A stretch of 64,000 bases of DNA from Candidatus Multivoradales bacterium (lineage in GTDB: Bacteria > Acidobacteriota > Thermoanaerobaculia > Multivoradales > JAHEKO01): NCBI GenBank assembly GCA_965248055.1, contig CBDFIJ010000004.1, positions 608,001 through 672,000 of the forward strand. Direction: 5' to 3'. The notes under the pieces were generated by a model. The model did not search any database and was not told the DNA's origin. It worked only from the letters and a program-made list of their open reading frames with translations. Each line of letters begins with the position of its first letter. Positions within the stretch are counted from its first letter, which is position 1. The position numbers were made by a program, and so were the translations under genes. Shown here piece after piece: positions 7,019 to 47,964 of the stretch.

Positions 7019-7591
7019 TTATTCTGCTCCTTGCCAGCGTTCGAATAGATCCTTGTCGAGCTTGATATCCAATAAGTCCAAGACTCGATTTACCGTTTGA
7101 TCGACGATTGCCTCGATATTCTTCGGGCGATGGTAGAACGCGGGAGTCGGTGGGACAATCGTGGCTCCCAGCTCCGCCGCTTGCGCCATTAGACGCAGGT
7201 GCCCCAAATGAAGCGGCGTTTCACGAACCACTAGAACCAAGTTGCGCTTCTCCTTGAGGGTCACGTCAGCCGCTCGAACCAAGAGGTTCTGCGAGAAACT
7301 GTTGGCGATTCCCGATAGGGTCTTGACTGTGCACGGAATCACCACCATACCTAAGGTCTTAAACGAACCCGATGAAATCGAAGCGGCGATATCGCTAGGA
7401 GCGTGCGAGTAGTCAGCTAGAGCGGCGACTTCCTCCACTTTTCGATCCGTCTCCAACAAAATCGTACGCTTCGCCGAGGGGCTGATCACCAAGTGCGTCT
7501 CTATTTCGCCAACCTTCCCCAACACTTCCAGTAGCCGAATACCATAGATCGCTCCAGTCGCTCCAGAGATGCCGACGACAAGTCTCCTCAA
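7019..7591 (-). CDS. ubiX: Flavin prenyltransferase UbiX
   Basis: VVGISGATGAIYG, ISSGSF, RAADVTLKEKR, RETPL, PAFYHRP. Confidence 0.97.
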   Translation of the reverse strand: MRRLVVGISGATGAIYGIRLLEVLGKVGEIETHLVISPSAKRTILLETDRKVEEVAALADYSHAPSDIAASISSGSFKTLGMVVIPCTVKTLSGIANSFSQNLLVRAADVTLKEKRNLVLVVRETPLHLGHLRLMAQAAELGATIVPPTPAFYHRPKNIEAIVDQTVNRVLDLLDIKLDKDLFERWQGAE

Positions 7592-7653
7592 GGCTGCACC
7601 CCATTTCCTTTCCGAACTTGCCGGCTCGGCATTCTCAAATCTATACTTCGCAA

Positions 7654-8382
7654 TTAACCAATCTCATAGTCCTGACTTGCAACCAATACATGATGGCTGT
7701 ATTCAGCGAACAAGTTGGGCCACCATCTCATCCCCTGCTCCAGGAACCAACGCCGAATCGGTCCCCCAGCCAAGGGATTCTTGAGTGCAGCCCGGGTTTC
7801 GACCAACGTGAGCATTGGCGCCTCGGACTCCACCAAAGAAGAAAAATCCCTTGAATAGTCAAAGAAGCGAATGTGGAGTCCTTCCCCATCGTTAGTATGC
7901 AGCAGGTCTTTGCTTAGTCGCCCGCGTAGAAACGCCCATCGAAATTGCGCTTGAACCGCGTTGGGAAGGGTCACCAGCACTTTGCCGTTCGGCTTCAGCA
8001 CTCGAGCCGCTTCACGCAAGGCATGTCCAGGATCAAAGATGTGCTCAAGGCAACAGAGCATCGTCACCGCCTCTACGCTCGATTCTGCCAACGGAAACCG
8101 GTCTTTTGAAATATCGCAAGGGTGTACTTCTAAACCTTTCTCCGCTGCCCTCTGACGCGCACGATCTGAAACATCCAACCCCACAACCTGGCAACCCAAG
8201 TCGCGCACCAGCATCTCACCAAAAACGCCATCGCCACAGGCAGCGTCAAGAATGTGGCTCTCGGGAGTGATGTGGCCGGAAGCAAACGTCCATCGACTCC
8301 GCCAGCGCGATCGAAGAGTGGCGTACTGGGGCAACAACAGCTTCTGCTCCCAAACGCGATCGTAGTACTGCTCAATCATCAT
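7654..8382 (-). CDS. Class I SAM-dependent methyltransferase
   Basis: ILDAACGDG, VVGLDVS, LEHIFDP, RVLKPNG. Confidence 0.9.
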   Translation of the reverse strand: MMIEQYYDRVWEQKLLLPQYATLRSRWRSRWTFASGHITPESHILDAACGDGVFGEMLVRDLGCQVVGLDVSDRARQRAAEKGLEVHPCDISKDRFPLAESSVEAVTMLCCLEHIFDPGHALREAARVLKPNGKVLVTLPNAVQAQFRWAFLRGRLSKDLLHTNDGEGLHIRFFDYSRDFSSLVESEAPMLTLVETRAALKNPLAGGPIRRWFLEQGMRWWPNLFAEYSHHVLVASQDYEIG

Positions 8383-35746: not shown

Positions 35747-36998
35747 TGTCCTAGATCAGTACCTTTGAGACAGTCGGCGGGAGCACGACCCCTGGGTCGA
35801 GCTTTAGAAGGTACCTTGCCGGGGGTTTTCTTTTCAAGCTCTTGTGCGGCCTGTAGGTGTTGTAGAGGTCCTGGAATCTCTGGATGTAAGGTCTCAAAGC
35901 CGAGACAGTATCGGGTAGCTCATACATTTCATAAAACTCTCCTCTCCAGGTTTCCTGCATTCGTTCGACGGTGCCGTTGAGCTTCGGACTCTTTGGCGGC
36001 AGCACATAGAGGGTGATGCCTCTATCTCGGCAGGCTTTCTCAAATTCATCCATAAATTCACTACCACCGTCCACTTGGATCGAGGTGATGTCAAACGGAC
36101 ACTCGGCAATGACTTTGTCTAGAAAGCGTGCTGCACAGCGAGAAGTGGCACGTTGATAGATCTCTCCCACTGTCCACCGGCTGACCGGACAGGAGGCTGA
36201 AAAGTGTTTGAGCCACTTGCCTGGAGCAGGGACCAGATGCAGCGTGTCGATCTGCAGTCGCTCGCCAGGGCGCGTTGGTCGGGGACACCATTTCGGCAGT
36301 CGCTGAGCGTGGAGCCGGCGCATACGCCGGGAGTTTTTGTACTTCTGGCGCCGGTAGCGTACCCGGTGGATTACCCCTCGATCCATCAATTTGCGCAAGA
36401 TACGCCCGACAGTGGCTTCTGATACCTCAAAGCCCTCGCCCTGGATCAGCGGCGCTAGGGTTTCCTTGCCCCAGGCAGGAAAGTCTCGACGGAGACTTTC
36501 GACTCTCTGTACCAATTCAGGTGACCAGTCAGCCTTACGCACCCGCTTGGGTCGGCTTGATATCGGTTCTAGATGTCGGGGGCCACGCTCAAGGCGTTTG
36601 CGCCAGCGGTAAAGGGTAGCTCGACTCTTGCCCAAGATCTGAGCTGCTTCTTCACCCGAGATCCCCTTGTCGCGTAGTTGCTCGAAGCTCGCAACCAAGC
36701 GCAGCCGATCACGAGCCTGAGAGCTTAAGACAACGATGTCTTCACGGTAGTACTTGTAGAAACTTGGATCGAGTGCGACGATTTGCATCTGGGGGCCTCC
36801 CTTCGTTTTGGGTTATTCGATAGACCCGAAGGATCTTGGCCCCCTTTTTACTTGTCAAGGCTGTGGATGATGATGGGCTGGTGCAAAGCCAGCTACGCTT
36901 GCCTTCCCACAGCCCTTGGAAATCTCTCACGAGATTCCCACATCCCCCACAGCCTCGGCGACTAACGGCGCTGTCTCACAGGTGTTTGATCTAGGTCA
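35747..36998 (-). mobile_element. IS481-family element
   Basis: Imperfect inverted ends TGTCCTAGATCAGTACCTTTGAGACAG and CTGTCTCACAGGTGTTTGATCTAGGTCA; no target duplication seen. Confidence 0.82.
35751..36788 (-). CDS. IS481-type DDE transposase
   Basis: HTH SRATLYRWRKR; QID, QVDGGSEF, NGTVER, YNTYRPH. Confidence 0.93.
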   Translation of the reverse strand: MQIVALDPSFYKYYREDIVVLSSQARDRLRLVASFEQLRDKGISGEEAAQILGKSRATLYRWRKRLERGPRHLEPISSRPKRVRKADWSPELVQRVESLRRDFPAWGKETLAPLIQGEGFEVSEATVGRILRKLMDRGVIHRVRYRRQKYKNSRRMRRLHAQRLPKWCPRPTRPGERLQIDTLHLVPAPGKWLKHFSASCPVSRWTVGEIYQRATSRCAARFLDKVIAECPFDITSIQVDGGSEFMDEFEKACRDRGITLYVLPPKSPKLNGTVERMQETWRGEFYEMYELPDTVSALRPYIQRFQDLYNTYRPHKSLKRKPPARYLLKLDPGVVLPPTVSKVLI

Positions 36999-37183: not shown

Positions 37184-37267
37184 TGGTGCCGGAGGCGGGA
37201 CTCGAACCCGCAAGCCTTGCGGCGGAGGATTTTAAGTCCTCTGCGTATGCCATTCCGCCACTCCGGC
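37184..37267 (-). tRNA. tRNA-Leu(TAA)
   Basis: GCCGGAG...GAGGA-CT-TAA-AA-TCCTC, long variable arm, GGTTCGAGTCC, CCA end. Confidence 0.97.
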
Positions 37268-38474: not shown

Positions 38475-38559
38475 GCCGGAGTGGCGGAATTGGTATACGC
38501 AGAGGACTTAAAATCCTCCGCCTTCGGGATTGCGGGTTCGAGTCCCGCCTCCGGCACCA
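38475..38559 (+). tRNA. tRNA-Leu(TAA), second copy
   Basis: GCCGGAGTGGCGGAATTGGTATACGCAGAGGACTTAAAATCCTC...GGTTCGAGTCCCGCCTCCGGCACCA. Confidence 0.97.
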
Positions 38560-38719: not shown

Positions 38720-39409
38720 ATGGATTTGATTTCTCAGGAGATACTTCGGTCCGCGACGCCGTTCAGCGCTTTGCCTGATGCTGATCGTCAACATCTTGCG
38801 GCGGTTGCCGAGGTTAAGACATTCCGGGCAGGCGACCTCGTTCTTCGCGAAGGCGAACCGTCGCACTATTTCTACACCATCGTCTCAGGGCGGGTGAAGG
38901 TGTTCAAAACAACTCCATCGGGAAAGGACATCATCTGGGGGATCTTCGGCTCGGGAGATCCCGTGGGCAGCGTGGCGGCGTTTAAGGAAACTCCCTATCC
39001 AGCAACCGCGGCAGCGCTCGAAGAGACTGTTTGCATCCAAATCTCCCGATCCGATCTCTACTCTTTGATGGATGATCACCCTTCGATTGCCAGGGGGCTT
39101 CTCCTTGGTCTGACCCAGCGCCTAGTTGAACTGGTCAACCGCGTGGGAGAACTGACTGGTGCCCGCGTTGAGCCTCGATTGGCGAGGCTCTTTCTTCGGC
39201 TCGCCCACGAAATGGGGCACCACGACCGTGCCGGTATCTTCATCCCGATGGCGCTCAGTCGGCAGGAACTCTCCGACATGACCGGCACTACGATCGAGAC
39301 CTGTATTCGTGTGATGAGTAAATGGCAGAAGGACGACACCGTGCATACCGAAAAAGATGGCTTTGTCGTTTTGGACCGGGCGGTCCTGACAGCCCTCGCC
39401 AACCACTGA
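38720..39409 (+). CDS. Crp/Fnr-family regulator (Dnr/NnrR-like; no FNR Cys cluster)
   Basis: cNMP fold IVSGRVKV, YPATAAALEE; HTH LSRQELSDMTGTTIETCIR. Confidence 0.93.
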   Translation: MDLISQEILRSATPFSALPDADRQHLAAVAEVKTFRAGDLVLREGEPSHYFYTIVSGRVKVFKTTPSGKDIIWGIFGSGDPVGSVAAFKETPYPATAAALEETVCIQISRSDLYSLMDDHPSIARGLLLGLTQRLVELVNRVGELTGARVEPRLARLFLRLAHEMGHHDRAGIFIPMALSRQELSDMTGTTIETCIRVMSKWQKDDTVHTEKDGFVVLDRAVLTALANH

Positions 39410-39481: not shown

Positions 39482-39886
39482 TTGGTGGAGTCCTCCAGTC
39501 TGAACGTTAGGATTGCCGAATTGGCCAACGCCAATCGGTTGCTGATTTCCCAAGCGCAACAGACCGACTGCCAATGCCCTTCTGCGGTATTGAATCTGGG
39601 CGCCTCGATTACCTCCCTCTCAACTCTGGCTTCTTGTCTTTACGAACACAATCGCTTTCTCGACGAAGCGGTCCTCGATGAGCTATTACTTGAGCGTCGG
39701 AGTTTGGCCGATGCCCTCGACCTGCTGAAAACGTTGAGTGAGGCCAACTCAGAATCGCACGACATTGAGCCTCTCGCCAGCGCGCTGGTGGGGCGCATCG
39801 AAGAGTTCCTCGAGCGCGAAGATCGCGCTTTCTACCAACCGCTACTCCGTTCCGCGAGTAGCGATAGCAGGAAGGCGCATAGGTAG
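39482..39886 (+). CDS. Small helical protein, degenerate hemerythrin-like
   Basis: C-terminal FLEREDRAFY resembles hemerythrin HxxxED.xF; start uncertain. Confidence 0.45.
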   Translation: MVESSSLNVRIAELANANRLLISQAQQTDCQCPSAVLNLGASITSLSTLASCLYEHNRFLDEAVLDELLLERRSLADALDLLKTLSEANSESHDIEPLASALVGRIEEFLEREDRAFYQPLLRSASSDSRKAHR

Positions 39887-39947
39887 TGCCTTTTCCCGTC
39901 AATTCAGCAAGGCCGTGTCCCCAAATTTCTGCCATAGGAGGTCCCCA

Positions 39948-41174
39948 ATGAATCTGAAACGGCGAAGCCAACCAGCCCGCAAATTGATCTGGTTCCTCAG
40001 CATCAGCCCTGTTGCTGCCTTGCTCTTTCTTGGGTCGTGCTCCGACGGGGGGGGCAACAGCAGCTCGAACCTGGCAGCAGCGAAAGCGGATAAGCCAGTT
40101 CTTTCGTGGACCCACCTAAACGTTCCTGAACCACCCAACTTTACGCCAGAGCTAGCAAGTAGGGGGGAGCAGGTGTTCAAAGACAACTGTGCGAGCTGTC
40201 ATGGAGAGAGCGGCGCAGCTGACGGCACCTGTGCTGCCTTTTTATCCCCCCAACCAAGGAATTTCACCACCGGTATCTACCGCTTTAAGACCACACCTGG
40301 GGCGGAAATGCCAACCGACCAAGATCTCTTCCGTACCGTCTCGCTGGGAGTCCACAGTACCGGTATGCCCCCTTGGCAGTACTTGCTTTCTGAGGAGGAC
40401 CGCTGGGCGGTGGTGGCTCACTTGAAGACTTTCTCGGACAAGTTCGAGAGCCGAGGGGCAGGGACCCCAGTGGATCTAGGAGACGAGCCGGCAACCATAA
40501 GCGAAGAGATGGTTACCCGTGGCCGAGAGGCGTACGTTAAGGGCCAATGCGGGAAATGCCACGGCGAAGGAGGCTATGGAGACGGTCCGTCTTCGCTCAC
40601 CCTTGAAGATGCCTTCGGCAACGCAATTCCACCGAGGAATTATCATAAAGCGGCAGATTTCAAGCGTGGGCACACCCTGCGCGACATCGCGCTGACGATT
40701 AACACCGGAAATAACGGCACACCAATGCCAGCCTTCAACGAGGCCTTCAGCGAACAAGAGGTCTGGGATCTGGCTGCGTACATTCACAGCCTTGCAGAGT
40801 TACGCTTTGCCGGCGGCGGCACTCCCGCCGCTGCGGTTATGGGAACGGAGCTTGGTGAGCCCGACGTAGTCATTGAGCTGACCGAGCGGCATTGGCAGTT
40901 CATCCCCAACGAAATTCGTGTCCGTCAGGGACAGGTTGTGCGAGTCGACTTTCAGCCTACCGACAACGGCTTGGGCGTCGGCCACGGTTTTGCCATCGAC
41001 GGCTACGATAAAGCCGTTTTCATGAATGGTGTGTTGGTTCAGCGACCGAAGTCGGTTTCTTTCCTGGCGGCGAAAGCGGGAACCTTCACCTTCTACTGCG
41101 CCACCCAGTGCAGCACCGGTCCGCTTCACCCAAAGATGAATGGCAAACTCATCGTCGAGCCGGCCGAGAGCTAA
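39948..41174 (+). CDS. Lipoprotein dihaem cytochrome c fused to a CuA-like cupredoxin
   Basis: AGGAGG RBS; lipobox-like LGSC; CASCH and CGKCH with PRNF/MP motifs; GHGF...YCATQCSTGPLHPKM. Confidence 0.88.
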   Translation: MNLKRRSQPARKLIWFLSISPVAALLFLGSCSDGGGNSSSNLAAAKADKPVLSWTHLNVPEPPNFTPELASRGEQVFKDNCASCHGESGAADGTCAAFLSPQPRNFTTGIYRFKTTPGAEMPTDQDLFRTVSLGVHSTGMPPWQYLLSEEDRWAVVAHLKTFSDKFESRGAGTPVDLGDEPATISEEMVTRGREAYVKGQCGKCHGEGGYGDGPSSLTLEDAFGNAIPPRNYHKAADFKRGHTLRDIALTINTGNNGTPMPAFNEAFSEQEVWDLAAYIHSLAELRFAGGGTPAAAVMGTELGEPDVVIELTERHWQFIPNEIRVRQGQVVRVDFQPTDNGLGVGHGFAIDGYDKAVFMNGVLVQRPKSVSFLAAKAGTFTFYCATQCSTGPLHPKMNGKLIVEPAES

Positions 41175-41184
41175 GGAGATCTAC

Positions 41185-42975
41185 ATGAGCAAGCGAAGAA
41201 ACCAGTTTTGGATCCCGACCATAGTCCTTGTCGCGAGTCTGGTGTTGGTTGCCACCTGCCGTGCACCCAGCAGGACAGCACAAGGAGAAAGCAGCACAGC
41301 CAATCTCAGCAGCCGGACCTATGTTCCGGTCGGTCAATGGGATAAATACTACGCTTTCCTGTCTGGAGGCCAAAGTGGAGCCGTCTACGTCTACGGTTTG
41401 CCTTCGGGCAGGTACATTCGCAGTATTCCGGTCTACGAGCCTCGCGCTGGCTACGGTTACGCCAACGTCCCGGGAACGGAAAGTTACGAGAGACTGGCTG
41501 CGTCAGGGCCAATGTGGGGCGATACCCACCATCCAATCCTCTCCGAAAAGGGCGGGGACTACGACGGAAAGTCTCTGTGGATCAATGACAAAGCCAATAG
41601 CCGCATCGCCAGAGTCGATCTGTCGACCTTCGAGACCAAGGCGATAGCCAAAATCCCAAACCTGCAGGCGACCCACGGAATTGCGGTCATCTCCCCCGAC
41701 ACCAGCTATATCGTTGCCAACGGCGAGTTCCGTGCAGAGGTCCCGCCTGGACGCATTGACGTCGATAACTACGGCTCCATCATGGCCTTTCTTGACCCGA
41801 CGACTCTGGAGCCCCAGTTTGAGGTTCTTATGCCCGGCAATTGCGATATCAACGACTCGAGCAAGGATGGGCGCTGGGCCTTCACGACAATCTACAATCT
41901 TGAGGGGGCCGTGACCGTTGAGGGGATGATTCAGCGCGAAGAGGATGCCATCGGTGCGGTCGACATCCACGCCGCTGAGGCTGCGATTGAACGAGGTGAG
42001 TTCAAAGTTGTCAACGGCGTCAAGGTGATTGACCCCGAGGCAACCACCGAGAAGGTTGTCTATGTGATCCCGGTGCCAAAGAACCCTCACGGGTGCGACG
42101 TAACGCCGGATGGCAAGTACGTCATGGGTACCGGGAAGCTGTCACCGACGGTCACAGTAATCGATATCAGCAAGATCGACCAGGTCGAGAATCCCCGCGA
42201 TGCGATTGCTGGTCAACCCGACGTCGGCCTCGGGCCGCTGCACACGACTTTTGATGGTCGCGGCAACGCCTACACTTCGCTCTTTGTCGACTCACAGATC
42301 GTCAAATGGAACATCGAAAAGGCTATCGCCGGAGACCCTACCTACATTGTCGATCGGGTGGACGTACACTATAACGTTGGCCATACCCAGGCCACGCTTG
42401 CCGAGACAATGCACCCTACCGGGGAATACCTGGTGTCGCTCAACAAACTCTCAAAGGATCAGTACCTGCCTGTTGGCCCAACGATGCCGGAGGCGCAGGA
42501 ACTGATCGATATTTCGGGCGAGAAGATGACACTGCTGTCGTCATTCCCAGCCGAGCCCGAGCCGCACGACGCAGTATTCATGTTGGCTGAAGACCTGATC
42601 CCCAACGTTATCCAGACAGAAGAGCTCACCGCAGATGCAGTGCCAGAAGGGGGCAGTCGTGTAGAAAGGGTTGGACCCAACGAAGTCCACGTTTACATGA
42701 CTGCGATCCGCTCCAAGTACGGTCTTAACGATTTCACCGTTAAGCAAGGAGACAAGGTTACGATCACTCTCACCAACATCGAGACGATTCGCGACATGAG
42801 CCACGGTTTCGCAATCGAAGACTATGGCGTCAATCTGGCTTTGGACCCGGGACAGACGCGTGAAGTGACCTTCGTCGCCGAACATCCGGGTACCCACTGG
42901 TACTACTGCACCTGGTTCTGTTCGGCGCTTCATCTTGAAATGAGAGGGAGGATGCTGGTCGAAGAGAATGGGTAG
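41185..42975 (+). CDS. nosZ: Nitrous oxide reductase
   Basis: CuZ His motifs DTHH, THG, PHG, GPLH, VGH, EPH; CuA HGF...CTWFCSALHLEM; AAGGAG RBS. Confidence 0.96.
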   Translation: MSKRRNQFWIPTIVLVASLVLVATCRAPSRTAQGESSTANLSSRTYVPVGQWDKYYAFLSGGQSGAVYVYGLPSGRYIRSIPVYEPRAGYGYANVPGTESYERLAASGPMWGDTHHPILSEKGGDYDGKSLWINDKANSRIARVDLSTFETKAIAKIPNLQATHGIAVISPDTSYIVANGEFRAEVPPGRIDVDNYGSIMAFLDPTTLEPQFEVLMPGNCDINDSSKDGRWAFTTIYNLEGAVTVEGMIQREEDAIGAVDIHAAEAAIERGEFKVVNGVKVIDPEATTEKVVYVIPVPKNPHGCDVTPDGKYVMGTGKLSPTVTVIDISKIDQVENPRDAIAGQPDVGLGPLHTTFDGRGNAYTSLFVDSQIVKWNIEKAIAGDPTYIVDRVDVHYNVGHTQATLAETMHPTGEYLVSLNKLSKDQYLPVGPTMPEAQELIDISGEKMTLLSSFPAEPEPHDAVFMLAEDLIPNVIQTEELTADAVPEGGSRVERVGPNEVHVYMTAIRSKYGLNDFTVKQGDKVTITLTNIETIRDMSHGFAIEDYGVNLALDPGQTREVTFVAEHPGTHWYYCTWFCSALHLEMRGRMLVEENG

Positions 42976-43624: not shown

Positions 43625-45072
43625 TCACCAAAACGAGTCCAGGTCAGATCCATCCACCGGCTGGCCACCCGGGATGGGGCATTGCGGCAGCTCTAGCGAG
43701 TGCGGTAATGCTCCTGGCCCTGCTGGTCGGTGGAATGGTGCTGATTCCCCGTTACCGCGCAGCTAACCCAGCGAGTGACCTTCAACTGAGCGATGCTGAT
43801 CGGGTGTCAATCGACGATCTCTACCTAGACCTGACGATCGTCACTCCAAAGTTCCTCGCCAGCCGGAACCTTGAACGCTTCTTGGGTGGACACGAGGCGG
43901 ATACCGTTCTGCCTTTGATTGTTGGGGTAAACGCTCACAAAGGCTCCATCGAACACATGCATCACCTAGACGGCGATGTGCATCTCCTTGACACCGATGG
44001 AGCGCGCTACCCGGCCCTCACCGAACCGATCGTGCTGACCGAACATCACAACGCCTACATGCTGCTATTCCCGCCACGGGATAACCACGGGAGTCCCTTC
44101 TTGCACGCCGAGGAGGGGAGTATCGTCGTTGAAGTTACTGGGATGGGGGCGGTTCCTGTTCGTAGATTCGAGTGGCAACTACCGCTCGACGAAAGTACCG
44201 AATCTGGGGTGCTAGGCGTTCTGATGCTGTTGGTAGCGCTCACCGGAGCTCTGCTGGTTGTGCTTTCGCCGTGTGCTCTCGAGCTAACTCTTTACTACAC
44301 AGCGATTATCTCGGCGACGATTGATGAAAGTGAAAAAGAAGTCGTGGCGAAGGGAGGCCTCGCTGCCGCTGACGGAGTTCGCCGACGAGTCCTGATCAAC
44401 CTTGGGAGTTTCGTCGCTGGCTTTACCCTCCTCTACTCCGCTGCCGGAGCGACAGTAGGCCTGATTGGGCAGGGAGTGCGCCAACCGCTTGGCGAGTACG
44501 GCGTTCTGATCCAAATTGCGGGAGGTGGCCTGATTCTCTTCTTTGCTCTTAAAGTCCTTGGACTCAATCAGTGGATTGGTCGCCGATTGGGATCCTCAGA
44601 TCTCCGAATCCCCGTACTCGGTCGGTGGTACCCCGCTCTAACGGGCGGGCTAAGACGCGCTTTGACTCGGCTCCGCTTTCGCGGTGAGAGCCGCGCAACA
44701 GAGCACGGGACGATGCGAGCCACTGACTCGTTTCTGGTTGGCATGGGGCTGTCATCAGCTTGCCTTGGCTGTATGGGGGGCGCGGTCCTCTACCCTCTTC
44801 TGGTTTACGCTGGAATCACCTCATGGTACTCAGGGCTCATTACCTTGGCCCTTTTCTCGCTGGCTATTGCTTTGCCAATGGTCACAATTGCCCTCGGGTT
44901 CTCGCGAATTCGACTCACGCTTGGCACTAGACCTGGAGTTACTCACACGCTGAAGTACGCCAGCGGTGTTCTGCTTGCCGGAATAGGCCTTCTGATCATT
45001 ACCGGCCGCGAACGGCTGATCACCGACGTGGCGTTCAAGTTCCTCGCCAATGTCACCCAGTGGTTCGCCTGA
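43621..45072 (+). CDS. His-rich soluble domain fused to a CcdA/DsbD-like membrane domain
   Basis: AHKGSIEHMHH and EHHNAY; LSPC, FVAGF, CLGCMGG in TM region. Confidence 0.75.
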   Translation: MITKTSPGQIHPPAGHPGWGIAAALASAVMLLALLVGGMVLIPRYRAANPASDLQLSDADRVSIDDLYLDLTIVTPKFLASRNLERFLGGHEADTVLPLIVGVNAHKGSIEHMHHLDGDVHLLDTDGARYPALTEPIVLTEHHNAYMLLFPPRDNHGSPFLHAEEGSIVVEVTGMGAVPVRRFEWQLPLDESTESGVLGVLMLLVALTGALLVVLSPCALELTLYYTAIISATIDESEKEVVAKGGLAAADGVRRRVLINLGSFVAGFTLLYSAAGATVGLIGQGVRQPLGEYGVLIQIAGGGLILFFALKVLGLNQWIGRRLGSSDLRIPVLGRWYPALTGGLRRALTRLRFRGESRATEHGTMRATDSFLVGMGLSSACLGCMGGAVLYPLLVYAGITSWYSGLITLALFSLAIALPMVTIALGFSRIRLTLGTRPGVTHTLKYASGVLLAGIGLLIITGRERLITDVAFKFLANVTQWFA

Positions 45073-46298
45073 TCCCTGTTCTCAGCTGTCTTGCGACCTT
45101 CGCTATTCCTGCGCAGGCCGCTCAGATTGTTGTCGATCCCGGTGAACTGAAAGCCGCCCTTCTAGATGCGGCTCCAGGCGACACCCTCAGGCTGCTGCCG
45201 GGGGTTCATTCCGGCCCAATCACCATCGACCTTCCGCTCCGACTGGAAGGCGCACCAGGGGCGGTTCTCGAAGGACCAGGAGTCGGTACCGTACTGACTC
45301 TGACAGCCGATGGGATCACTATCACGGGCCTCACGGTGCGCGGCTCCGGTAGCGATCTCTCACGGGACGAAGCGGTGATTCTGATAAAGCAAGCACAGGG
45401 CATAACGATTGAAAACTGCCTTGTGGAGGCGAAAGCTTTCGGTATCTATCTGGAGTCCGGAAGGGGGCACCGCATTCGGCGCAATCAGGTACTAGGGGAC
45501 ACGTCATTGCAGGTGGCTCGAAGAGGCAACGGCATTCACCTGTGGCAGACCGAAGACAACGAGATTCTAGATAATCGCCTAGTCGACGTGCGAGACGGAA
45601 TCTACTTGTCGTTCGCCCACGACAATGTGATCCGCGGAAACCGGGGACAAGGACTGCGCTACGGTATTCACTACATGTATTCGGAACGAAATACCCTGTC
45701 TGAGAACCATTTCAGCAACGGTATCGGTGGAATCGCTCTGATGTTTTCGATGCGCAATCGAATTGAGAACAACGACACTTTCAACAACCGTGACTTCGGC
45801 ATCTTGTGCCAGCAGATAGAGAACTCGCAGATTGAGGGTAACCGCGCGTTCGGAAACGGCCGTGGTTTCTACCTTGAGAACTCCGCCATCAATCGGTTCG
45901 TGGGCAACCGGTTGAAAGCCAATGGCGTAGGTGTCTATCTCACCGCCGGCTCAGAGCAGAACGTGTTTACCCACAATCACTTTGTCGGTAACTTGGTTCA
46001 GGTGTTCGAAGACCATCCAGGTATCAACACCTTTTTCGATCAACAGCAGGGTAACTTCTGGGGCGACTACGCTGGTTTTGACTGGAACGGCGACGGAATC
46101 GGTGAAACCCCATACCGCTTGAACACCGCGGCTTCCGCGTTGATGGCGCGAAAGCCGATAGCTCGTTGGTTTTGGATGAGCCCGGCACTGGCCCTTCTGG
46201 AATGGTGGGATACCCGCATAGCAAAAGCCAAAGTCCAGAGCTTTGATCCATTCCCGCTGATTGGCTCTAACGTCGAAGCACAGCAGGTGTTGCAGTGA
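45060..46298 (+). CDS. nosD: NosD maturation protein
   Basis: RRGNGIHLW, RDGIY, LRYGIHYMYS, GNFWGDYAGFDWNGDGIGETPY. Confidence 0.95.
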   Translation: MVRLIPVLSCLATFAIPAQAAQIVVDPGELKAALLDAAPGDTLRLLPGVHSGPITIDLPLRLEGAPGAVLEGPGVGTVLTLTADGITITGLTVRGSGSDLSRDEAVILIKQAQGITIENCLVEAKAFGIYLESGRGHRIRRNQVLGDTSLQVARRGNGIHLWQTEDNEILDNRLVDVRDGIYLSFAHDNVIRGNRGQGLRYGIHYMYSERNTLSENHFSNGIGGIALMFSMRNRIENNDTFNNRDFGILCQQIENSQIEGNRAFGNGRGFYLENSAINRFVGNRLKANGVGVYLTAGSEQNVFTHNHFVGNLVQVFEDHPGINTFFDQQQGNFWGDYAGFDWNGDGIGETPYRLNTAASALMARKPIARWFWMSPALALLEWWDTRIAKAKVQSFDPFPLIGSNVEAQQVLQ

Positions 46299-47029
46299 TG
46301 ACAGGTGTCCAATTCGTCAAAGCCGGACGTCGCTTTGGTCGCCACCTGGCACTTCACAACCTGGATCTCGACTGCCCACGAGGGGTCTTGACTTGCCTTG
46401 TGGGTCCCAATGGCGCTGGCAAATCAACCGCGTTAGCACTGGCAGCAGGCCTTCTGGCACCAACGACGGGGGCAGTTGTCAACGGTGGCCGCCCGGTGCG
46501 CCTATCCGGGCCACTAGAGGACACAGGCTATCTCCCTCAGCGAAGTGCTTTTCACCCTTCGTTCACCGTCAGCGAAGTCCTAGATTTCACAGTCGCAGCT
46601 CGCGGCAACAGCAACCTTGTGAGGTGCCAAGCACTGACCGTCACCGGACTGGATTCAGTACTTGATCGTTCTGTCGGCGAGCTCTCGGGCGGTTGGATCC
46701 GACGCCTCGGCCTGCTTTCGGCATTGCTGGGGTCACCCGCCGTGCTACTCCTCGACGAACCCTTCGTCGGGCTCGACCCTGAAACCCACGATCGCTTGCT
46801 GGCACACCTCGCGTCGCGTCTACAGTCCGGTGCAACCATCCTCATGGCCAGCCACGAATTCGAAGCTGCAGACCCATTGCATCCTAAAGTGGCAGTCCTC
46901 GAAGAGGGTCGTCTGCTCCTCACCGCTCAAGTGTCGGGCGACACGCCGAATGGCAACTCCTCCAGCCGCTCTTTCTACCGTCGAGCTCTACAGAAGGGTT
47001 CGATTCCCACCCAACAAGAGAAGGAATGA
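46295..47029 (+). CDS. nosF: NosF ABC ATPase
   Basis: GPNGAGKS, GYLPQ, LSGG, LLDEP; follows nosD. Confidence 0.88.
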   Translation: MMTGVQFVKAGRRFGRHLALHNLDLDCPRGVLTCLVGPNGAGKSTALALAAGLLAPTTGAVVNGGRPVRLSGPLEDTGYLPQRSAFHPSFTVSEVLDFTVAARGNSNLVRCQALTVTGLDSVLDRSVGELSGGWIRRLGLLSALLGSPAVLLLDEPFVGLDPETHDRLLAHLASRLQSGATILMASHEFEAADPLHPKVAVLEEGRLLLTAQVSGDTPNGNSSSRSFYRRALQKGSIPTQQEKE

Positions 47030-47964
47030 TGATCCCTCTGCGCGCGCTGATGCTGGTAGCCCTGAGAGAGGTGCGGCTATTGCGCCGCAGCCGGGCAACA
47101 CTCGGCGCCGTCGCCTTGCTCGCTTCCGTGGCTTGGATGGCGGCAGTCCTGCAACCACTGCGCCGCGGTTCTTTGGGAGTCGCTTCGTTTACTGAGATGC
47201 AGCCTCTCCAGATTGCCCTGGGTGCAGTGATCTTGCCATTGCTTGCTCTGTTGGCAGGAGCTGAACTGTTTGCTGGCGAACTGGCGGAAGGGTCCCTGGT
47301 ACCGCTCTTGACTCTGCCGATTTCACGCCGAGCTTGCTTTGTCGGCAAGTGCCTCGGCCGTGGCATGACTCTTGGCATTCTCTATATCGTCGCGTTTGCG
47401 AGCGTCGGCGTCACCGTAGCAGTGGCACGGGGTGGGGCTGGTTGGAGGGACTGGATCGTGGTCACCGGCGCCGGCCTGCTGCTAGCGTTTTCGACCGGCT
47501 GCGTCGGTACGGCTCTCGGCGCCACAGGCAAAGGTCGTGTGCGGGCGTTTGGCGCGGCACTATTTACCTGGGTCATTCTTGTCTTCGCTCTCGACGCCTT
47601 ACTACTCACCTTAGTGATTGCGCTCGCTCCGCCTCCGCCAGATGGCATTGGTACGCATGGACATGGAGAAATCGCCGCTCCCCAAGGAACAATGCCAAGC
47701 CACGACCCACACGCCCGCGAGTCAGAGCCAGAGTCACCGAGAGCTGGAGGGCTATCCAAGCGACTTATGGCCCTGAGCCCTGTCAGTCTCTTTCGTTTGA
47801 CCTGCCTGGCGGCAAGCAAGAGCTTGAAGCCTCGGCTCACCTTGGCACTGCCAGGCGACAGCCCGGCCGAACTCTGGACAACGCTATCCATCGGGTGGTT
47901 GATTTGGATAATGGCTCCGCTTGCTTTCGGGTTACGTCGATTCCTTCGCGCCAGCCTGAGTTAA
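47026..47964 (+). CDS. nosY: NosY ABC permease
   Basis: LPLLALL...GELAEGSL, PISR...GK, ALSPVSLFR; follows nosF. Confidence 0.85.
   Translation: MMIPLRALMLVALREVRLLRRSRATLGAVALLASVAWMAAVLQPLRRGSLGVASFTEMQPLQIALGAVILPLLALLAGAELFAGELAEGSLVPLLTLPISRRACFVGKCLGRGMTLGILYIVAFASVGVTVAVARGGAGWRDWIVVTGAGLLLAFSTGCVGTALGATGKGRVRAFGAALFTWVILVFALDALLLTLVIALAPPPPDGIGTHGHGEIAAPQGTMPSHDPHARESEPESPRAGGLSKRLMALSPVSLFRLTCLAASKSLKPRLTLALPGDSPAELWTTLSIGWLIWIMAPLAFGLRRFLRASLS

Follow-up and report, generated by a model that had tools for sequence, protein, structure and literature searches.

A dihaem cytochrome c–cupredoxin lipoprotein encoded directly before nosZ in a Multivoradales genome: a candidate electron donor to nitrous oxide reductase

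The 64,000-nucleotide (nt) stretch of contig CBDFIJ010000004.1 of Candidatus Multivoradales bacterium (Acidobacteriota) analysed in this study, hereafter the window, carries a stop-free open reading frame (ORF) of 408 codons at positions 39948–41174 of the forward strand. It encodes a 408-amino acid (aa) lipoprotein in which two haem c domains are followed by a cupredoxin with the ligand residues of the CuA domain of nitrous oxide reductase (NosZ), and the next gene downstream is nosZ itself. This fusion protein is probably a NosC-like, membrane-anchored donor dedicated to NosZ, with two haems and a CuA centre, fed by a cytochrome bc complex or alternative complex III. A preliminary description of this DNA, made from its letters and a list of ORFs, had proposed a dihaem cytochrome c–CuA fusion lipoprotein in this role, and the architecture that it gave, a lipoprotein with two haem c domains and a cupredoxin of NosZ-type CuA ligands, is supported by the results presented here.

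An AGGAGG sequence (39936–39941) lies 6 nt 5′ of the ATG of the fusion gene, and homologues in an alignment of 28 sequences share the same start methionine, so that the longer ORF opening with GTG at 39738 is unnecessary. The stop codon, TAA, occupies positions 41172–41174 and the ATG of nosZ stands at 41185 behind an AAGGAG, leaving a gap of exactly 10 nt, as had been described. The N-terminus runs from a basic stretch through a hydrophobic stretch to the lipobox L-G-S-C31, a pattern already noticed from the letters, the cysteine of which is invariant in all 28 aligned homologues; a loose lipobox-like pattern is present in 101 of the 120 best matches, the remainder being mostly incomplete sequences. 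The Gly/Ser/Ala stretch that follows C31 has a predicted local distance difference test score (pLDDT) below 50 over residues 32–48 in the AlphaFold2 (AF2) model, as expected of a tether, and beyond the cleavable signal peptide there are no further transmembrane helices. The protein has eight cysteines (residues 31, 81, 84, 95, 201, 204, 384 and 388). Two extra cysteine-containing stretches had been claimed, whereas there is just one extra cysteine, C95 in G-T-C. This unpaired residue (window 40230–40232) lies ten residues past the first haem motif and is kept in at least 90% of the 28 homologues; its position is Leu in the Kuenenia dihaem relative compared below, and the adjoining residues 97–100 fall in the predicted interface with NosZ.

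Both CxxCH sites of the preliminary description were found as given (C81–H85 and C201–H205), each within a domain matched by Pfam above its cut-off (PF13442 at 86.9 bits, cut-off 27; PF00034 at 78.6 bits, cut-off 21.3), and all six motif residues (C81, C84, H85; C201, C204, H205) are invariant in 28 of 28 aligned members. M140 and M260 are likewise invariant in these sequences, in G-x-x-M-P contexts (M140 in G-M-P-P-W), and would be the distal ligands of the haem irons. Residues 67–284 match 6h5l_B at E 2.7e-54 with 42% identity, and Foldseek gave a template modelling (TM) score of 0.93 on the target. An exhaustive search of 50%-identity representatives found the dihaem module to be widespread and combined with many other domains; full-length relatives of the fusion form few clusters, whereas relatives of the dihaem module by itself number in the thousands. 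One paralogue of the module is encoded in the window's own genome (locus L040 4039–5706 on the minus strand; G000:C4, at about 2.398 Mb), where it shares a chain with an EB_dh (haem b) domain and adjoins a 1163-aa molybdopterin oxidoreductase; it appears to serve a periplasmic molybdoenzyme as electron-transfer subunit.

It is only the C-terminal part of the fusion that is matched by NCBIfam NosZ models (TIGR04246 at E 3.3e-11, TIGR04244 at 6.6e-9 and the clade III L-NosZ model at 2e-8), and a PDB search with the fusion returned NosZ chains at 1.7e-5 against about 0.01 for COX2 fragments. Foldseek aligned the cupredoxin with NosZ chains over about 100 residues (E ~1e-7, 30–32% identity), and BLASTP against the NosZ of the window (E 9e-12) placed H346, C384, C388, H394 and M397 on H540, C575, C579, H583 and M586, two residues of the fusion between the second Cys and the His having no counterpart in NosZ. 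It had been stated earlier that the cupredoxin carries H...C-x3-C-x5-H-x2-M and that this loop is two residues longer than the C-x3-C-x3-H-x2-M loop of the adjacent NosZ; both statements hold, the fusion having H346...C384-ATQ-C388-STGPL-H394-PK-M397 and NosZ having C575-TWF-C579-SAL-H583-LE-M586. When eight cupredoxins were aligned (four of the fusion type, two NosZ CuA domains and two stand-alone cupredoxins), the five ligand columns were invariant in all eight and the insertion was confined to the fusion type. Judged by these alignments, the cupredoxin most likely holds a binuclear CuA-type copper centre, which would be occupied by two coppers rather than one.

A word-indexed protein search returned 1036 proteins at E ≤0.001 among 8000 scored candidates. 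Named members of the family are few and are annotated as 'c-type cytochrome' or 'mono/diheme cytochrome c family protein'; one (P0104) bears the public-record name 'Nitrous-oxide reductase', presumably from its CuA domain. The motif C-x3-C-x5-H-x2-M is kept in 117 of the 120 best matches, which shows that it is not a chance feature, and the exceptions are two fragments that end before the cupredoxin and the degenerate P0103. Across 28 diverse members the lipobox Cys, both CxxCH motifs, both distal Met residues, H346 and C388 are invariant, and C95, C384, H394 and M397 are each kept in at least 90%.

A few relatives have lost copper ligands. P0103 is without the first Cys, the second His and the Met, is followed by a ThuA-family gene and has no nosZ on its 6.2-kb contig; P0127 is without the first Cys and the second His and is fused to ThuA; and P0143 is without both Cys. 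As P0103 and P0127 are both tied to ThuA (n = 2), loss of ligands accompanies loss of the link with nosZ. The ThuA-linked relatives without ligands (locus L045 1718–3768, P0103 and P0127) look like a separate subfamily.

The link with nosZ was followed across genomes in two directions. With one genome taken per species, cupredoxin peptide patterns retrieved 38 loci, all of them in metagenome-assembled genomes (MAGs), which thus sample the fusion family and not all nosZ; by their record titles, 14 are from Acidobacteriota, 15 from Verrucomicrobiota and 9 are labelled otherwise. The arrangement thus belongs to bacteria of soil and sediment that are known from MAGs. In 35 of the 35 loci with downstream DNA, nosZ directly follows the fusion gene, and the other three (L002, L003 and L014) stop at a contig edge within or just past it. 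In seven loci the NosZ match begins at residue 1, and there it lies 11–88 nt from the last matched codon of the fusion. The recurrent gene order is fusion, nosZ, a NosB-like gene, a CcdA-like gene, nosD and nosF. For the reverse direction, 301 genomes were drawn from the window's phylum and NosZ was called at E ≤1e-30, giving NosZ in 35. A NosZ with 70% identity or more to that of the window is present in just three of these, namely the window's own genome (G000), G175 and G215, and in all three an orthologue of the cupredoxin (E <1e-50) adjoins nosZ, the whole cluster being present in G175; no orthologue of the fusion was found in the 32 genomes with other NosZ (37–47% identity to that of the window). 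Since the genomes are related and only three are positive, the contrast of 3/3 with 0/32 is to be read as an association and not as a statistic. Co-occurrence with nosZ, which the preliminary description had named as a check, is therefore seen both by locus (35/35) and by NosZ subclade (3/3 against 0/32), and a fusion that is common and unlinked to nosZ, which would have spoken against the proposal, is not what was found: the fusion is common, yet linked to nosZ.

Other cupredoxins and NosZ variants were met in the same genomes. In locus L041 (G257:C34:42000–49770), nosZ (637 aa) is preceded by an SCO1/SenC gene and a gene for a 168-aa lipoprotein cupredoxin whose motif is the canonical C-x3-C-x3-H-x2-M, and is followed by thioredoxin-like and NosB-like genes; more cupredoxin-like matches lie at about 1685–1990 and 7524–7658. 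This locus is an independent case of a cupredoxin with CuA ligands before nosZ. Sco and thioredoxin-like proteins are CuA assembly factors. At L042 5032–6172 (G278:C15), a sensor kinase and a sigma-54-type activator-like ORF are followed by a 225-aa cupredoxin with C-x3-C-x3-H-x2-M and by another, small cupredoxin-like ORF, in a genome (G278) that gave no NosZ match, and L043 (G010) has just a weak cupredoxin match. Within the phylum, several NosZ matches lie in much longer frames (1124, 852, 798, 783 and 778 aa; G059:C49:9849–11669 is among them), as if NosZ were joined there to further parts, for instance to cytochrome c extensions.

The NosZ of the window scores 604 bits with TIGR04244 and 538 bits with TIGR04246, both under the 625 cut-off of the NCBIfam equivalogs. 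Its CuZ ligands (H115, H116, H164, H302, H353, H400 and H461) and its own CuA ligands (H540, C575, C579, H583 and M586) are nevertheless invariant in 31 of 31 aligned NosZ, and W577 is kept in at least 90%. A lipobox Cys ends a short signal peptide in 30 of 33 readable NosZ N-termini, whereas, read by eye, an Arg-Arg pair within a real n-region occurs in just two, so that NosZ is predicted to be a Sec-exported lipoprotein; enzyme and putative donor would thus be tethered on the same membrane surface.

The genome was also screened for donor modules. No NosR-like or NapH/NosH-like gene was found in the cluster or elsewhere in this 97.7%-complete genome: the sole PF12801 (Fer4_5) match is a pyridine-nucleotide-disulphide oxidoreductase with 4Fe-4S domains and not of the NosR/NapH/NosH type, and the sole FMN_bind match is a 271-aa ORF 1 Mb away. 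The earlier proposal that the fusion replaces NosR or NosGH is in keeping with this, but the role itself is not novel, nosC having already been described. Two cytochrome b, one NrfD-type and five haem-copper oxidase subunit I (COX1) homologues are encoded, and quinol:cytochrome c oxidoreductases able to reduce a lipoprotein cytochrome are thus plausibly present. In the mechanism that we favour, quinol would be oxidised by a bc complex or by an alternative complex III whose genes lie elsewhere in the genome, and electrons would reach first the membrane-tethered dihaem module and then the copper centre of the fusion, to go from there through the CuA of NosZ to CuZ. The order of the centres is proposed by analogy with subunit II of caa3 oxidase, and the upstream reductase and a physical contact with NosZ are further presumed parts of this scheme. 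The fusion gene would be co-transcribed with the gene of the lipoprotein NosZ. A look-up of sequencing runs listed no RNA run that contains positions 39948–42975, whereas four runs of one study contain the DNA and probably come from the source sample. During assembly, a CcdA/DsbD-like protein encoded in the cluster would keep the cysteines of the haem motifs and the copper site reduced.

Several observations weigh against the donor reading, and they concern its sampling, the copper site, copper handling and the predicted contact with NosZ. All 38 related loci are from MAGs, and ORF clustering upstream of them found no conserved quinol-oxidising module beside the cluster. The loop is noncanonical, with five and not three residues between the second Cys and the His in all 117 motif-bearing matches, and a distant relative (P0130) has C-x3-C-x15-H-x2-M; to our knowledge there is no natural CuA with C-x3-C-x5-H-x2-M spacing. 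The Pfam Cupredoxin_1 match reaches 21.9 bits, under the gathering score of 27, and AF2 confidence in the cupredoxin is moderate, with means for blocks of ten residues of 59–90 over 301–400 and of 59–68 in five of the seven blocks counted from residue 341, the region of the ligand residues.

Such features would suit a protein with the same donor role in which the cupredoxin binds a mononuclear or other non-CuA copper (for example in a type-1-like site of Cys388, His, His and Met, with Cys384 spare) or serves as a metal-free docking domain. The spacing between the second Cys and the His is two residues over that of four aligned canonical CuA domains and widens to x15 in P0130, the model is of moderate confidence in the ligand loops, and the relatives without ligands retain the fold. 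A type-1 site, however, needs only one Cys, whereas 117 of 120 matches retain the full set of two Cys, two His and the Met; the nearest relatives in sequence and fold are CuA domains and not blue copper proteins; and the relatives without ligands stand out of the nosZ context. A copper site other than CuA, or a metal-free docking domain, is unlikely in our judgement.

NosL (PF05573) was not found in the 97.7%-complete genome, which leaves room for a copper-handling role. The fusion could then be a maturation factor, in the form of a redox-active carrier of copper or a scaffold for loading or repairing CuA or CuZ of NosZ in place of the missing NosL. The combination of C-x3-C and His is also a ligand set of Sco-like copper(I) chaperones, a CcdA/DsbD-like thiol-reductant transporter accompanies the fusion in 27 of 28 loci, and the cluster at L041 has Sco and thioredoxin. 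On the other hand, it is hard to see what two conserved haem c domains with His/Met ligation would do in copper delivery, the type of dihaem module found here accompanies redox enzymes (6h5l_B, and the EB_dh fusion beside a molybdoenzyme), and the cupredoxin is homologous to an electron-transfer site. The His-rich N-terminal part of the CcdA/DsbD-like protein is, moreover, an alternative candidate for the missing chaperone. A role in maturation is quite unlikely compared with the role of donor.

A complex prediction with NosZ had also been suggested in the preliminary description. One NosZ chain only (residues 40–596) was modelled with residues 50–408 of the fusion from separate alignments, and the score of 0.63, against 0.00 for the best of three controls, passes a mark that was attained for 116 of 157 solved complexes and for 2 of 215 mismatched pairs, counts that are rough because custom alignments were used here. 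The runs agreed in at least 74% of contacts, with a partner pLDDT of at least 86 and 91–97 contacts. On the side of the fusion, contacts involve the copper loops (344–361, 381–386 and 398), the linker (285–298), haem domain 2 (208–237) and residues 97–100. The score counts in favour of the proposal, whereas the pose is suspect and counts among the points against it: every NosZ contact is in the propeller (240–430), some within 3–6 positions of the CuZ histidines 302, 353 and 400, and none is on the CuA domain of NosZ itself. In solved homodimers of nitrous oxide reductase (N2OR), the CuA domain of the second monomer covers that face of the propeller. As one NosZ chain was given a partner homologous to NosZ CuA, the pass may reflect likeness to the solved N2OR dimers, and the modelled pose probably mimics the NosZ homodimer. 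The prediction may be taken to mean that NosZ and the fusion are compatible, and would not give their true docking geometry.

Taken literally, the pose would make the fusion a stable subunit of a heteromeric N2O reductase, with its copper domain on the CuZ face of the propeller and feeding CuZ directly. The score against a control of 0.00, the placing of the CuA loops, the linker 285–298 and haem domain 2 near three CuZ histidines, the lipoprotein nature of both partners and the one-to-one association with a NosZ subclade all fit such a subunit. The CuA ligands of NosZ itself are kept in 31 of 31 sequences, however, which would be pointless unless the canonical head-to-tail dimer still forms, and from this invariance it can be argued that it does; with one NosZ chain modelled and a NosZ CuA homologue as partner, the pose is also the expected artefact. 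A heteromeric reductase is very unlikely. Only slightly less improbable is a permanent membrane-tethered hetero-complex in which the donor's own CuA-type centre, with the longer loop, would rest against the propeller and hand electrons on from CuA to CuA or even straight to CuZ. Were it true, this would be the first natural CuA centre to act as a carrier outside a terminal enzyme, in a self-contained haem–haem–Cu–Cu wire that would let abundant soil phyla do without NosR, NosGH and soluble carriers.

Two other identities were considered for the fusion and rejected. It is not a COX subunit II, as it has no transmembrane helices and no coxA neighbour and is closer to NosZ; the TIGR02866 CoxB model gave no match to it at E ≤0.01. 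Nor is it a mis-split NosZ, the neighbouring NosZ being complete with a CuA domain of its own. Longer fused forms of the cupredoxin part (715–2040 aa) were searched for and none was found, which is weak evidence.

The features of the fusion protein and the other genes of the cluster are given in Table 1. The NosB-like protein is conserved in related loci and in L041 (28% identity, E 1e-11), and a search of Pfam gave it no family match. The CcdA/DsbD-like protein has as its first Atlas match (0.96) a cluster in which 86% of the members carry PF02683 DsbD_TM, and of the 28 loci whose DNA extends as far as nosD, 27 have its gene between the NosB-like gene and nosD, the exception being L028. It carries an extra N-terminal periplasmic part rich in His and Met, and may be the fused thiol-reductant exporter and copper chaperone of such nos clusters. 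The 134-aa ORF before the fusion gene gave no Pfam or NCBIfam match, and tblastn found homologues of it at the same place in L003, L004, L005 and L009.

Table 1. Coordinates of the fusion protein features and neighbouring genes in the window.
Feature	Position	Strand	Basis or remarks
Crp/Fnr-family regulator gene	38720..39409	+	Pfam cNMP_binding and HTH_Crp_2; upstream of cluster
Small conserved ORF, 134 aa	39482..39886	+	Between regulator and fusion gene
Lipoprotein signal peptide, lipobox L-G-S-C31	39948..40040	+	Sequence; C31 invariant
Cytochrome c domain 1, ~residues 60–165	40125..40442	+	PF13442 over 70–159; C81-A-S-C-H85, distal Met140 (predicted)
Cytochrome c domain 2, ~residues 178–285	40479..40802	+	PF00034 over 190–282; C201-G-K-C-H205, distal Met260 (predicted)
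NosZ-like cupredoxin, residues 298–408	40839..41171	+	Putative CuA ligands H346, C384, C388, H394, M397
Ligand loop C-A-T-Q-C-S-T-G-P-L-H-P-K-M (C-x3-C-x5-H-x2-M)	41097..41138	+	Sequence; 117/120 matches
nosZ, 596 aa, divergent Sec-lipoprotein subclade	41185..42975	+	TIGR04244, TIGR04246
NosB-like membrane protein, 218 aa	42968..43624	+	Named by position directly after nosZ
CcdA/DsbD-like membrane protein, 483 aa	43621..45072	+	Atlas; CcdA 5vkv_A, E 0.032
nosD	45060..46298	+	TIGR04247, 384 bits, above cut-off
nosF (ABC ATPase)	46295..47029	+	PF00005 and position
nosY (ABC-2 permease)	47026..47964	+	PF12679 and position

Upstream of the 38 loci, ORF clustering recovered regulators only, with Crp in six, Rrf2-family in six and ScdA/hemerythrin in four. 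In some loci Rrf2-family or ScdA/hemerythrin genes replace the Crp/Fnr gene (L016 5375–6001; L017 1619–2431), and such neighbours fit control by nitrogen oxides. No FNR/Crp box (consensus TTGAT-N4-ATCAA) with up to two mismatches was found between 38720 and 39947. Promoter-like sites were no more frequent than in shuffled sequences, with none before the fusion gene, and terminator-like sites numbered 16 against 9.5 expected (standard deviation 3.4), with none in an intergenic gap within the cluster. Further upstream is an inverted pair of tRNA-Leu(TAA) genes, at 37184–37267 on the minus strand and 38475–38559 on the plus strand, with about 1.2 kb between them; a transposase-like ORF (35751–36788, minus strand) lies just upstream of the pair, and the second tRNA-Leu is about 160 nt from the start of the nos cluster. 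The pair and the transposase-like ORF suggest an insertion hot spot or the border of an island.

The fusion bears on the route by which electrons reach clade II-type N2O reductases beyond a few model organisms, and the Acidobacteriota and Verrucomicrobiota are major soil groups that are counted as potential N2O sinks. The fusion family gives one NosZ subclade an explicit candidate for a donor, and one orphan branch of CuA cupredoxins a partner. To bioinorganic chemists it also offers, in a small soluble construct, a putative CuA-type site of natural origin whose ligand loop is lengthened. For automatic counts of nosZ, the naming of P0104 and the scores of this NosZ below the cut-off mean that a donor may be miscounted and an enzyme missed. 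No description of a dihaem cytochrome c–cupredoxin in nos clusters, or of a natural CuA with this loop, was found in open-access papers and bioRxiv, subscription journals being outside the search.

Among known systems, NosC is the nearest in role. A nosC gene for a lipoprotein cytochrome c, the presumed donor, stands directly before clade II nosZ in Gram-positives such as Bacillus azotoformans and Geobacillus (PMC3475470), and Methylacidiphilum has nosCZB..., with NosC again proposed as the donor (bioRxiv 10.1101/2024.01.15.574570). Clusters described as 'atypical' or clade II have this layout, in which nosC precedes nosZ, NosB follows it and NosR is absent (PMC3475470; PMC11409646; bioRxiv 10.1101/2024.01.15.574570). 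As this layout has already been described, the donor role is not new. As in those accounts of NosC, the fusion gene lies immediately before nosZ on the same strand, its product has a lipoprotein anchor and c-type haem, and the cluster has no NosR. The two are likened by description, NosC being described there as monohaem, whereas the fusion has two haem domains and a cupredoxin with CuA ligands and is best regarded as a more elaborate NosC.

The CuA domain of NosZ (3sbp, 1fwx, 6rl0) is the closest relative of residues 298–408 in sequence and fold, with H, C, C, H and M aligned. Unlike it, the cupredoxin of the fusion is off the propeller, is joined to cytochromes and has the two-residue insertion between the second Cys and the His. 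At the position after Cys1+1 it also has Thr where NosZ has Trp. The backbone carbonyl of that Trp binds copper in NosZ. Subunit II of caa3 oxidase (Thermus thermophilus 2yev_B, a weak PDB match at E 0.0032) resembles the fusion in placing haem c and a CuA cupredoxin on one polypeptide, as a wire from haem to CuA. The fusion differs from it in its reversed domain order, its two haems, its lack of extra transmembrane helices, its neighbour (nosZ and not coxA) and its cupredoxin, which is nearer to NosZ than to COX2. Residues 67–284, in turn, are like the dihaem chain of Kuenenia Kustc0457/Kustc0458 (6h5l chain B), which, unlike the fusion, has no cupredoxin and no lipobox and serves another enzyme; this chain is the redox partner of an octahaem enzyme.

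Stand-alone NosZ-like CuA proteins, with no CuZ propeller and no known partner, are described from DPANN archaea (bioRxiv 10.1101/2023.10.30.564641). Like such 'nosZ-like' cupredoxins of DPANN archaea and candidate phyla radiation (CPR) bacteria, which are exported or tethered, the fusion has a NosZ-type CuA domain off the propeller, but here the domain shares a chain with a dihaem cytochrome and its gene is linked to a complete nosZ. The cNosZ of Wolinella and other Epsilonproteobacteria has a monohaem domain at the C-terminus of NosZ, as outlined in bioRxiv 10.1101/2025.06.28.662143 (citing Simon et al. 2004). On that account both arrangements place haem c with the CuA of NosZ, whereas the fusion is a separate lipoprotein with a copper domain of its own. 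The fusion protein is thus outside a strict use of 'CuA', by its spacing, and of 'NosC', by its architecture, and most likely works like both.

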